This document shows, piece after piece, positions 1-2,937 of a stretch of 36,641 nucleotides of DNA. Positions within the stretch are counted from its first letter, which is position 1; every line of letters starts with the position of its first letter. This stretch comes from Armatimonadota bacterium (lineage in GTDB: Bacteria > Armatimonadota > Fimbriimonadia > Fimbriimonadales > GBS-DC). The notes under the pieces are model-generated. The model was not told the DNA's origin, ran no database searches, and saw only the letters and a program-made list of their open reading frames with translations. The position numbers and the translations under genes were made by a program. Location: positions 1 through 36,641 of the forward strand of contig JBBIML010000028.1 in the NCBI GenBank assembly GCA_037444405.1, read 5' to 3'.

Positions 1-127
1 GTGCCAGAATAAGGTATCCTCTTTTTAGGTGAGCGTGATGGGTTTACGCGGGGTGATACGCGGGCGCACGATTGAGCTAGAGCAGGAACCGCCCCTGCCC
101 GATGGCACACAGGTGGAGGTGGAGCTG
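1..127 (+). repeat. Direct repeat copy 1 (TA promoter + antitoxin N-terminus), cut by the window edge
   Basis: Bases 1-127 are identical to 2155-2281; the sequences diverge immediately after ...GTGGAGCTG. Confidence 0.97.
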
Positions 128-268
128 GTTTCGCCCGCCCGTTCCGAGAACCCCTTCTGGGGACGCTGGCGCGAGCATGCCGACCTGCTGACTGAAATAG
201 AACAGGAAATCCTGACCGCGCGTGAGAACACAGCCTGGAGAAGCCTGAATGGAGAAGGCACTAATTGA
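29..268 (+). CDS. Putative antitoxin (AF2212/DUF104-like N-terminus); ATG at 38 is the likelier start
   Basis: Small protein GLRGVIRGRTIELEQEPPLPDGTQVEVEL overlapping a downstream PIN gene; SD-like AGGTGAG at 27-33. Confidence 0.75.
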   Translation: MSVMGLRGVIRGRTIELEQEPPLPDGTQVEVELVSPARSENPFWGRWREHADLLTEIEQEILTARENTAWRSLNGEGTN

Positions 269-680
269 TACCGACATCTGGCTGGACATTATGCGAGGTG
301 TACATCCCGCGGTGCAGGCGCGGGCGGATGCCTACTGGGCGGCTCACGGCACTTTTACGCTGTCGGTGATTACGGTGGCGGAGGTGGTGCGGGGGCTGGT
401 GCGTCGTCAGCGGGCGGACCTGCTGGCGCAGTGGCGTTCGGATGTGGGCAGGCTGGAGATTTTGCCTGTGGATTACGCGGTTGGGGAGTTAGCGGGGGAG
501 TTATATGCGCGGCTGGATTTGGCTGGTTTTCCGATAGGGCGTTTGGATCCGCTGATAGCGGCGACGGCGTTGCGGTATGGGCTGGTTCTGGTGTCGGCGA
601 ATGAGCGTCATTATCGGCGTGTGATAGAGGTGGGCTACCCATTGCGGGTGGTGAACTGGCGAGAAGAGGTGGTGGAGTGA
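249..680 (+). CDS. vapC: PIN-domain toxin, VapC family
   Basis: LIDTD N-terminal motif, SVITVAEV, DPLIAATA...LVSANERHY; 143 aa. Confidence 0.92.
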   Translation: MEKALIDTDIWLDIMRGVHPAVQARADAYWAAHGTFTLSVITVAEVVRGLVRRQRADLLAQWRSDVGRLEILPVDYAVGELAGELYARLDLAGFPIGRLDPLIAATALRYGLVLVSANERHYRRVIEVGYPLRVVNWREEVVE

Positions 681-1381
681 TGGGGTTGCAGGCAAGCGTG
701 ATGGGTTATAGTAGGTTGCTGTATGATGGGCACGACAACCTGGTGCGTGTGATGGCGTCTACCTATGCGCTCTCCAGTTTTCAGTGGCGTGGGGTATGGG
801 GTGAGGTTCAGAGTTCGCTGGGCGCTGGCAGGGGTTATTGCGCCAATCTGGGTCATTCGGAGGATGAGACGGGGCTGGTGTATATGCGGGCGCGGTATTA
901 TGAGCCTTTGACAGGTCGGTTTATCAGTGAAGACCCTGCGCGGGATGGGGTGAACTGGTACTTATATGCGGATGGGAATCCGGTGAACAGAATTGATCGG
1001 GGTGGTGCAGATAGCGAATTTGAGGCTGTTCTTTATCAGTTAATTGGCAATTTAATGGTGATGATAGGACGATTCTTGCTTGACAACGCTGGTCTTCCTA
1101 AGTTTGATAAAGATGATCTTTGGTCTGAACTGTTCAAGCAAATCAAAAAGCGAGGTATTGAATTAATACCCGATAGTTCTGCTCAAAAGATAATTAAACT
1201 TCTTTCTTATGTGATTGATACCGCTAAAAAATTGAGTGAAGGTATTCCAGGTGATGAGCTGGCTAAGCGATGGGGAGGATATACGTGGATTTTGCTTGGA
1301 CAGTTGCTCTTGACAGATGCGGAAATGGCGGATCCAGGTGCAGGAGAATGGTGGGGGTATCAAGGCAAATGGCCCTTCTAA
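677..1381 (+). CDS. Orphan RHS repeat-associated core fragment with uncharacterised C-terminal toxin tip
   Basis: EDETGLVYMRARYYEPLTGRFISEDP...NWYLYADGNPVNRIDRGG core signature; GC drops abruptly after about 1010. Confidence 0.9.
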   Translation: MMGLQASVMGYSRLLYDGHDNLVRVMASTYALSSFQWRGVWGEVQSSLGAGRGYCANLGHSEDETGLVYMRARYYEPLTGRFISEDPARDGVNWYLYADGNPVNRIDRGGADSEFEAVLYQLIGNLMVMIGRFLLDNAGLPKFDKDDLWSELFKQIKKRGIELIPDSSAQKIIKLLSYVIDTAKKLSEGIPGDELAKRWGGYTWILLGQLLLTDAEMADPGAGEWWGYQGKWPF

Positions 1382-1400
1382 GCTGGGAGGTGAATGTTTA

Positions 1401-1812
1401 ATGGAGACCTGGAAAAAGTGCGCCATTATATCTTTAATTATGTTTTTTTGTATTTATTTTTATTGATGTTTATTTCTTTGTGAGTCATCGTTATTACTTT
1501 GACTCGCCCTTGAGGGTAATAATGGTGATGAATAAGCCGACCTGGCCTCTTTCTGACTCGATCTATGACTATGACACGGGCATATCGCAAAGGAAATGCG
1601 TAGTCCCTACTTTATATGTTCTCATCTGGCCTATATTTTTCCTATTTTCAGCGATATACTGCTGGCTTATTGGGCGCTACTTCGATGACGGCGATGCACT
1701 GGGAGATAAAGACTGGGTTCTGGTACTGATCTGGTTTATAGTGCTTATATTGTTTGCCGCCTTAGATTATTGGATAGCTCTCCAAGCGTGGAACAGGGGT
1801 CAGCCTATATAG
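1401..1812 (+). pseudogene. Putative membrane immunity protein, frameshifted at the T7 tract 1443-1449 (downstream part is ORF 1480-1812)
   Basis: Directly follows the RHS tip; AT-rich; GGAGGTGA SD 7 nt before ATG 1401; removing one T gives METWKKCAIISLIMFFVFIFIDVYFFVSHRYY..., continuous with the 110-aa ORF that has two hydrophobic segments. Confidence 0.65.
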
Positions 1813-1821
1813 GATACGGTA

Positions 1822-1960
1822 GCAGGAAATTCGTGGCGGATGGAGTATCTGTATGATGGGCAGATGCCGGTATGCGAGCAGGAGTTTGTGGGCAGCACTT
1901 TGCGCGCGACACGGGTCGACTTTCCTGGCGCACGAGGGATAGAGCTGTGCCGACGATAGA
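1822..1960 (+). pseudogene. RHS core relic, copy A
   Basis: Translates as MEYLYDGQMPVCEQEFVGSTLRATRVDFPGARGIE, which is RHS/YD-like; 1841-1900 matches 3031-3090 at 59/60 nt. Confidence 0.65.
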
Positions 1961-2005
1961 CCATACGCGGGGTAATCCAATTGGCGGCTCTTATTACAGC
2001 CAGTA

Positions 2006-2166
2006 GACTGCATCCGCGAGGGTGAAAAAGCTCTGTAGCACCTTCGGGAAGCGATGGAATTCGCTCTGAAACCTTCAGAGGAGCCTTGCAGGCACGAGGG
2101 GCAGCTGATGGATGAGAGCGCAGGATGAACAGGGTTCCCAGTTTGCCGCACCCAGTGCCAGAATAA
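2006..2166 (+). pseudogene. Possible degraded hicB plus truncated hicA start
   Basis: DCIREGEKAL*HLREAMEFAL resembles the HicB GCxxQGET.EEAL..LREA.EL pattern; its stop overlaps (ATGA at 2125-2128) a short ORF MNRVPSLP resembling HicA N-termini. Confidence 0.4.
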
Positions 2167-2281
2167 GGTATCCTCTTTTTAGGTGAGCGTGATGGGTTTA
2201 CGCGGGGTGATACGCGGGCGCACGATTGAGCTAGAGCAGGAACCGCCCCTGCCCGATGGCACACAGGTGGAGGTGGAGCTG
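2155..2281 (+). repeat. Direct repeat copy 2 (TA promoter + antitoxin N-terminus)
   Basis: Identical to 1-127. Confidence 0.97.
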
Positions 2282-2440
2282 CATCCTGCCACAGACCCCC
2301 TCTTTGACCGACTCTGCACTCTCTGGCACCTCACCTCCACCGAACCGTTGCCCTCCCTCGAAGAGGCACGCCAACAGGCAGCGCAGGCGCTTACTCCCAG
2401 AAAGGCGAGCCAGTTCATCCAGGCGATGCGTCAGGAGTGA
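2183..2440 (+). CDS. Putative antitoxin 2 (first 33 codons identical to antitoxin 1, different C-terminus); likely start 2192
   Basis: Overlaps the downstream PIN gene by GTGA; shared N-terminus. Confidence 0.75.
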   Translation: MSVMGLRGVIRGRTIELEQEPPLPDGTQVEVELHPATDPLFDRLCTLWHLTSTEPLPSLEEARQQAAQALTPRKASQFIQAMRQE

Positions 2441-2937
2441 AGCCGATGGTCTATCTGGAATCGAGTGCGTGGGTCAAGCGCTATGTGGAGGAAGCTGGCT
2501 GCGCGACGGTTCACGCGCTGCTGGAATATGTTGCGGCTAATCCTGCCTGTCGTGTCGCCAGCGCGTGGCTGGGGCTGGCAGAGGTGGTGGCGGTGCTGCA
2601 TCGGCTTGCTAATCGGGGGGAGATGAGTCGGGCGGGGCTGGCGCGGCTGGTGCAGCAGCTGGCTGCAGATCGGGCGCATTTGCAGCTGCGGAGTTTGTCG
2701 GTGTCAGACTGGTCAGGGGTAGTAGAGCTGGTGGTGCGTCATAGTTTGACCGCTGCGGATGCGGTGCATCTGCAAGCGGCGTTGCGTTGGTGGTGGGAGT
2801 TAGGGGTGGCACGGCTGGTGTTTGTGAGTGCAGATGGGCGTTTGCTGCGGGCAGCGGGTCGGGAGGGGTTGGTGGCATTTGATGTGGAGGCTGGCGACTG
2901 GGAGCAGTTGCGGGCGCTGCTGGAGCCAGAGGGGTAG
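2437..2937 (+). CDS. vapC: PIN-domain toxin, VapC family (different subfamily from 249-680)
   Basis: VYLESSAWVKRYVEE, LAEV, LTAADAVHLQAAL, FVSADGRL motifs. Confidence 0.9.
   Translation: MKPMVYLESSAWVKRYVEEAGCATVHALLEYVAANPACRVASAWLGLAEVVAVLHRLANRGEMSRAGLARLVQQLAADRAHLQLRSLSVSDWSGVVELVVRHSLTAADAVHLQAALRWWWELGVARLVFVSADGRLLRAAGREGLVAFDVEAGDWEQLRALLEPEG

Follow-up and report, generated by a model that had tools for sequence, protein, structure and literature searches.

Probable exchange of antitoxin tail and toxin units at a common antitoxin head in a family of Fimbriimonadales

The division of toxin-antitoxin (TA) operons into two modules, one consisting of the promoter with the DNA-binding part of the antitoxin and the other of the antitoxin tail with the toxin, was proposed for Phd/Doc by Smith and Magnuson (2004), as cited in passages of PMC3879964. 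Excerpts of PMC10440598 call fusion or exchange of TA modules "a plausible evolutionary pathway", and those of PMC3920263 describe mixing and matching via in situ displacement. Several arrangements of this kind have been reported, i.e., COG2880-PIN pairs forming tandem clusters of close paralogues in Archaeoglobus fulgidus (passages of PMC2701414), orphan RHS modules expressed as type II TA pairs (excerpts of PMC7043789), and TA spots of Photorhabdus with high turnover, several TA types (PIN, HicAB, MazF, and DUF433/DUF5615), and erosion into pseudogenes (parts of PMC13617665). TA genes flanked by non-coding repeats are also known, in an arrangement different from the one presented here (sections of PMC7935541). 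In this work, we analyzed a 36,641-bp stretch of DNA (the window, to which all plain positions refer) of an Armatimonadota bacterium of the order Fimbriimonadales. It is the entire contig C28, one of 40 contigs in the assembly, here called G000. At its beginning lie two VapBC-like type II TA cassettes, A and B, whose antitoxins have the same N-terminal head followed by different tails and different PIN toxins. We consider it quite likely that this head is a joint for the homologous exchange of whole units, each composed of a toxin-binding tail and its toxin, across this bacterial family. The pairing of antitoxins with unrelated toxins has so far been argued mostly from distant family combinations, and here apparently recent natural swaps with mapped breakpoints are available.

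Heads, tails, and toxins

Positions 1-127 and 2155-2281 of the window are 100% identical and diverge at the very next base, as was pointed out in an initial annotation made from the sequence alone. The block contains a -10-like motif, GGTATCCT (13-20 and 2167-2174), which is generic in this genome, a Shine-Dalgarno sequence, and the antitoxin head, all named in that annotation; the 33 head codons that it counted are obtained only from GTG 29, and 30 from ATG 38, at which the homologues begin. Both head copies (38-127 and 2192-2281; all features of the array are on the + strand) are identical, and the second is taken to be the crossover zone. Each is followed by its own tail and toxin. Tail A (NPFWG...DLL..IEQEI; 128-268) completes a 76-aa antitoxin (from ATG 38), whose gene overlaps by 20 nt that of PIN/VapC toxin A (249-680; LIDTDIW subfamily; PF01850, E 7.6e-16). 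Tail B (LF[DE]RL..LW..TEPLPSLEEA; 2282-2440) overlaps by 4 nt the gene of PIN/VapC toxin B (2437-2937, ATG 2446; YLESSAWVK subfamily), for which the PF01850 match (E 9.5e-4) is under the cut-off. The tails do not align to each other, and a comparison of PIN A with PIN B gave no BLASTP match at E ≤ 10, in agreement with the view of the initial annotation that the tails are unrelated and the toxins belong to different subfamilies. PIN A has 48% identity to PIN C and 47% to PIN D, two toxins of other copies.

The head profile matched 21 of the 29 genomes of the family; at E ≤ 1e-8 there were matches in 19 of 151 genomes of the order, all within this family, and four other families of that order, represented by 122 genomes, had none. 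Of 201 relatives confirmed in a metagenome scan, the best 80, corresponding to 75 loci, were used, and the source names of the homologues indicate Armatimonadota, order Fimbriimonadales. From the family genomes and the metagenome loci, a comparison set of 87 distinct full-length heads of at least 55 bits was compiled. More remote versions of the head, joined to tails of great variety, are found widely: at E ≤ 0.001 there were 546 cluster representatives, a number that includes some long repeat proteins as spurious matches.

Within the comparison set, near-identical heads are borne by tails A, B, C, and E, with the toxins PIN A, PIN B, PIN C, and MazF. EQEPP heads occur with tails A (6), B (8), and C (5), EADPH heads with A (2), B (10), and C (4), EEDPH heads with A (9), B (1), and E (6) as well as with one A/C hybrid, and DEPPP heads with A (5) and C (5). 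Tail E precedes a PemK/MazF toxin (PF02452, E 7e-27 in genome G001 and 2e-26 in G018), and the head of the MazF tail E at locus L132 is 95-100% identical over 84 nt to heads with PIN A tails at L175, L176, L179, and L181. The tails, in turn, are coupled to the toxins, tail type and toxin type being concordant in 63/63 scorable cases (four PIN types and one MazF), with 19/19 for tail A with PIN A and 15/15 for tail B with PIN B. The head trees left 16 of 23 inner branches open, and because of this poor resolution approximately unbiased (AU) tests and pair tables were used instead of topology. For the 27 heads of the family genomes, the AU tests rejected head clades defined by tail A (p = 0.003), B (p = 0.019), and C (p = 0.013), also after removal of two identical partners (p = 0.012, 0.0004, and 0.013, respectively). 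At 95% head identity, 7 of 13 clusters mix tails. Other tails were also seen (L167:3001; L161:1866; L134:1491), namely an unrelated one of 108 aa and one of 18 residues that follows two different types of head.

To locate the breakpoints, 58 pairs with heads at least 93% identical and with different tails were collected. In 56 of them, the common tract has its right end at nt 80-91 of the 90-nt head, and the left ends lie anywhere from +10 to -1746 relative to the ATG, which does not agree with the fixed 127-bp constant block assumed in the initial annotation. At L162, identity runs to nt 129, leaving an A/C hybrid tail. The clearest replacement was found between L136/L144/L128 (tail C) and L168/L154/L158 (tail A), where the flanks are ~90-93% alike on both sides, no RHS sequence is present, and identity breaks in the last head codons and returns in the 3' end of the PIN gene. 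Judging from these sequences, this is an allelic double crossover between paralogous PINs (48% identical). Similarly, in G002 the counterpart of the gene that ends contig C30 of G000 is followed by RHS, a hicB remnant, a head, and tail C, and G000 has tail A there. L115 has the upstream DNA of L114 (98%) and then tail A in place of B. The swaps apparently are recent. The AU tests, the tail-toxin coupling, and the allelic swap at an orthologous locus thus support the proposal of the initial annotation that the head is the point at which tail and toxin units are exchanged; moreover, a third copy on contig C16 of G000 and the further tails and toxins in relatives speak against the possibility, raised there, that only two copies exist, without other partners.

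Several points weigh against this reading. The 58 pairs are non-independent and come from a handful of lineages and studies, the AU tests rest on 90 columns with long branches included, and of the 16 clusters formed at 97% head identity over 90 nt, only 2 contain truly different tail types. The tail classes are our own motifs, defined after the data had been seen; no toxin was found for 17 of the typed tails, and another 7 tails were left without a type. Metagenome contigs could be mis-joined at common heads, which weakens single-contig cases such as L115, and the whole argument concerns contigs, in which no recombination event is observed directly. Furthermore, the role of the head as a DNA binder is a prediction with a weak fold match (Z 2.2), and the predicted complex described below may pass through its likeness to solved VapBC complexes, its alignments lying outside the calibration.

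Mechanism of exchange and its alternatives

A 2:2 complex of PIN B with antitoxin B was predicted with a score of 0.83 against 0.60 for the best control; the score mark was reached by 116 of 157 solved pairs and by 2 of 215 mismatched pairs. The runs agreed in at least 92% of contacts, the partner had a predicted local distance difference test (pLDDT) value of at least 71, and all confident antitoxin contacts in the model were at residues 34-81, i.e., in the tail (for pair B only). It may be proposed that binding of the toxin is left to the tail alone. In that case, recombination within the head would yield an in-frame operon with the toxin still neutralised, and an exchange that separates tail from toxin would release the latter, be lethal, and be purged. 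If the model is right, the full concordance of tails and toxins would follow, because breaks between them would be lethal and crossovers in the head would keep the pair together. The left anchor of the exchange would be the head with any common upstream DNA, and the right anchor the conserved 3' end of related PIN genes (in A/C swaps) or the RHS-core repeats of the array (for unrelated toxins). The embedding of TA cassettes in RHS orphan arrays suggests that these arrays supply the second anchor for exchanging unrelated toxins.

No recombinase or transposase family was found among the ORFs of positions 1-3125, nor among 38 neighboring open reading frames (ORFs) from 13 loci (55 ORFs of at least 170 aa were collected, and RHS, PIN, and a few repeated ones were left out of the scan); a distant enzyme acting in trans was not searched for. 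Since no recombinase was found nearby, ordinary homologous recombination, often inside RHS orphan arrays, is likely, presumably as a RecA-type exchange by the general recombination machinery of the host, without a dedicated recombinase. A fixed right end combined with a variable left end is what is expected of homologous recombination where homology simply stops.

It is improbable that concerted evolution alone is responsible, in which the tail and toxin units stay put and short gene-conversion tracts homogenize the heads of paralogues. Several tracts do cover the head alone, with the left end at about the ATG (L132 vs. L175/L179/L181; L118 vs. L119/L120), and close heads within one genome tend toward a single type; however, tail A or C stands at the same chromosomal site between matching flanks, the same upstream block precedes tail C in G002 and tail A in G000, and the array preceding the H+-pyrophosphatase gene has A as its last tail in L140 and C in L131. 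Conversion of the head alone probably takes place as well, being the other face of one and the same process.

Still less probable is a dedicated, selected shuffling, i.e., a site-specific or programmed reaction at the head end that would diversify the toxins, with one repressor for all cassettes. The tight clustering of the right ends, the recurrence of tandem arrays in separate lineages (L131, with head repeats of 226 bp at 97%; L114, 113 bp at 98%; also L125 and L126/L140), and the presence of an RHS core within ~3 kb at 38 of 75 metagenome loci would agree with it. On the other hand, a fixed right end is expected wherever homology stops, the left ends vary over 1.7 kb, the crossover of L162 lies inside the tail, and neither a recombinase among the scanned ORFs nor a conserved site or inverted repeat in 80 upstream regions was detected. 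Many copies are also truncated or decayed (on C16 and C6 of G000, and in G002, G011, G013, G015, and G022), and this decay is explained by selfish turnover no less well than by an adaptive library. The third explanation, an assembly artefact, bears on the structure of the window itself and is considered with it below.

Repeat R, its promoter, and the RHS orphan array

The length and the left edge of the 127-bp block are likely set by the assembler, only its right edge being biological, because the contig starts there and 21 of the 80 contig ends of the G000 assembly have an exact 127-bp match elsewhere, which we take to be the signature of a k=127 assembly graph (SPAdes practice). The idea of a designed 127-bp module was accordingly dropped in favor of a k-mer overlap. 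Most likely, what is duplicated is a repeat of ~441 bp, called R here (1841-2281), which comprises an RHS-core scrap, a hicB remnant, the -10-like motif and Shine-Dalgarno sequence, and the head. This extent follows from the reversed start of contig C30, which is identical to positions 1841-1966 (exact over 126 bp, the 127-mer having no further occurrence in the assembly), and from the depth pattern in an independent assembly of the public run X1, in which 95% of sampled words were found. As X1 is possibly the source sample, it provides a separate assembly and not a separate organism. An X1 contig over 1842-2205 has a depth of 43.9, the branch contigs have 16.6 (98-780) and 19.8 (2252-2590), and the downstream flanking host genes 20.4 and 25.7; with contig depth being a rough guide only and not a copy number, R stands at ~2x flank depth, and both junctions are present (in the contigs that start at 98 and 2252). 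Coverage of the stretch by runs X2-X4 is piecemeal, and holes in them were not counted as evidence. The most parsimonious order is C30 - R - cassette A - RHS orphan - R - cassette B, in which positions 1-127 are the distal 127 bp of the upstream R copy, recognized by the k-mer overlap at the contig start and bearing the head of cassette A, and the remainder of that copy would fill the interval from reversed C30 to C28. The A unit may also exist as an excised circle.

That the duplicate is only a k-mer overlap and that A and B are alleles of different cells joined by the assembler is very improbable: the block is exactly 127 bp long and stands at a contig start, as at 20 other contig ends, and other strains in the same runs have A and B with different upstream DNA, but alleles would sum to flank depth and R has about twice that with both junctions at about flank depth in X1, two other runs have contigs that continue from R into tail B (1995-2488 and 1841-2369), and these head-tail junctions recur in many further genomes, among them the single-contig G012.

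The third copy of the block and R, 93% identical, is followed on C16 by the third tail (C) with a decayed toxin, then by a more distant paralogous pair (D), and then by another RHS orphan; contig C6 carries a single decayed head. G000 has no full-length RHS of this subfamily, only core scraps, and G002 has an intact 1510-aa RHS (L040:5398-9927, on its contig C30) at a site syntenic with C16, where G000 keeps only core scraps. Probably R in G000 originated from a C-type locus shared with G002 and was then recently duplicated before tails A and B.

Both cassettes lie, unnoticed in the initial annotation, inside an RHS orphan array, i.e., a series of core, variable low-GC tip, and small gene, without the N-terminal delivery part. 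The start codon of the orphan RHS module (677-1381; TIGR03696, E 1.6e-17) overlaps the stop codon of PIN A, and its 3' core (~710-1054) precedes a C-terminal tip with a GC content of 0.41. For this tip, family scans indicated no function and the Atlas gave no informative match. Behind it lies a small hydrophobic ORF (1480-1812, alternative ATG 1522; GC 0.41), predicted to be the likely immunity gene of the tip because of its position and low GC; it matched no Pfam, NCBIfam, or PADLOC family. Next come an RHS-core scrap (1822-1977; 87% DNA identity to the G002 1510-aa RHS, ~aa 1227-1278) and a hicB pseudogene remnant with an in-frame stop (2009-2125), common to G002 (59% to an intact hicB-type ORF and 90% to the remnant of that genome), whose G001 homologue matches PF15919. 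A further RHS-core scrap (2955-3107; ~aa 1208-1258 of the G002 RHS) closes the array, and host genes restart at 3146 with an M48 peptidase. None of six window proteins matched the PADLOC anti-phage defence models.

RHS cores occur in 26 of 29 family genomes, with up to 27 per genome. In arrays of other RHS subfamilies, in G022 and G012, TA-like genes also seem to stand between the orphans (L195:8688-9391, L195:1291-1889, and L193:7389-7589; PIN-like and DUF433/DUF5615-like, by eye). The array upstream of the H+-pyrophosphatase gene (G000:C16 24300-26800 = L001; L131/L140) is orthologous, and its TA and RHS contents differ per lineage. The M48 peptidase gene (window 2955-3146 vs. L104-L107) has a different upstream neighbor in every relative that was examined. 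As RHS scraps sit at synteny breaks in this genome, rearrangement of the chromosome may be another effect of these repeats. Farther along the window, what looks to be the remains of a truncated CRISPR-Cas locus lies at 6599-8626, with cas6 (PF01881), a 357-aa cas8-like ORF without Pfam match, and, at its end, a 31-bp repeat in two identical copies, 70 bp apart. The other contig end (36158-36641) breaks within an ORF resembling a Uma2-type endonuclease (by eye) and has a 127-bp overlap with C25, i.e., another collapsed repeat.

The head itself was modeled as an AF2212/DUF104-like beta hairpin and is predicted to be an AF2212/AbrB-like dimer that binds DNA. Against 48,161 chains, the head model ranked 2NWT (AF2212) first (Z 2.2, root-mean-square deviation 1.5, 30 residues aligned), a weak match tied with an unrelated chain, and an AF2212-like cluster was third in the Atlas (0.84), a lead only. 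There was no match for the full-length antitoxin model by VIA-align or for the 30-residue head model by Foldseek, and sequence searches of the PDB with head profiles returned spurious repeat matches only. The PF01954 cut-off was missed: the window antitoxins had no match, paralogue D had E 0.033, and 1 of 70 homologues had E 0.0095, still under the cut-off. The head is best described as AF2212-like and at most as a putative member of COG2880/DUF104. Outside this family, the head is also joined to other antitoxin domains, as distant heads fused to DUF433 domains occur in P0061, P0071, and P0100.

With regard to regulation, 62 of 80 distinct upstream regions have an 8-mer of the GGTATACT type in common. 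Four variants of it occur 91 to 269 times each in this genome, and conservation at the positions before it is weak, reaching 63% at most. An operator search in the 80 regions gave no conserved palindrome and no inverted repeat common to more than six regions, and in a scan for sigma-70 promoters the block had no match (2 were located elsewhere vs. 1.9 expected). An identical promoter, postulated in the initial annotation together with an identical operator, would thus hold for the two copies of this genome, by way of R, and not as a rule, since only a generic -10-like 8-mer is common to the upstream regions. A single regulon and dimers with mixed tails may reasonably be predicted. When one cell has identical heads, these would be expected to heterodimerise and cross-regulate, a question rarely addressed by insulation models, and hybrids of any head with any tail are predicted to neutralise by the tail and repress by the head, which makes the model directly testable.

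Orphan RHS ORFs often start from a few bases to ~50 nt past a TA toxin stop (677-680; L001:8447; L125:3463; L126:3358; L139:1818; L160:3693; L039:10111), using a purine-rich stretch and a GTG that belong to the RHS core itself, and of 53 loci examined, 18 have an RHS core close behind the toxin. The orphan tips and immunity genes might be expressed from the TA promoter. A wider, rather doubtful proposal is that the head and the RHS-core repeats together form a selected cassette system without a recombinase, in which tail and toxin units are plugged into RHS orphan arrays behind an interchangeable head, all cassettes cross-repress via mixed-tail antitoxin dimers, and the TA promoter also transcribes orphan RHS tips with their immunity genes, which begin directly behind the toxin stop. 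If true, such a system would couple an intracellular toxin library to a polymorphic-toxin immunity library.

Comparison with described systems

The initial annotation regarded the concept as undescribed, and here it has to be corrected, as the two-module split had already been put forward (Smith and Magnuson 2004, as cited in the passages of PMC3879964). As in that model, one DNA-binding domain can serve different toxin families (excerpts of PMC3879964 and PMC10440598). In these excerpts, it is inferred from distant family combinations, whereas here there are heads 93-100% identical, mapped tract ends, an allelic pair, and switches from PIN to MazF in one family. A full-text literature search found no recent head-anchored swaps and no TA cassettes in RHS orphan arrays; most subscription papers and supplements were outside its scope, and family-level tables may hold such pairs.

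In the passages of PMC2701414, the COG2880/DUF104 (AF2212)-PIN pairs resemble the present cassettes in having a small beta-hairpin, AbrB-related head beside PIN genes. Unlike them, the heads described here miss the PF01954 cut-off, pair with MazF too, and sit in RHS arrays, and exchange between head and tail does not appear in those passages. With RHS orphan arrays and tip displacement, as presented in sections of PMC7043789, the locus shares a conserved 5' anchor, a variable 3' toxin unit with its neutraliser, and tandem orphans. In contrast, the anchor lies here inside the antitoxin gene, the exchanged unit is a neutralising tail with an intracellular toxin, each cassette has its own -10-like motif and Shine-Dalgarno sequence, and stand-alone copies are swapped without any RHS (L136/L168). 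The TA spots likewise are clustered TA types eroding to pseudogenes; the available text of PMC13617665 ties them to transposases and integrases and does not contain the words "rhs", "chimer", "tandem", or "swap", whereas here no mobility gene was found among the scanned ORFs and turnover runs through head and RHS-core homology. Site-specific cassette systems (integron, shufflon) differ in their linked recombinase, for which there was no counterpart among the ORFs scanned, and in their fixed bounding site, of which the tract ends and the 80 upstream regions gave no sign.

Thus, the two-module principle is old, and what appears new are the nucleotide-level snapshots of swaps across toxin folds. 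The swapping interpretation is well supported by the comparative sequence data, and the system may be regarded as an unusually clear case of a known evolutionary principle.

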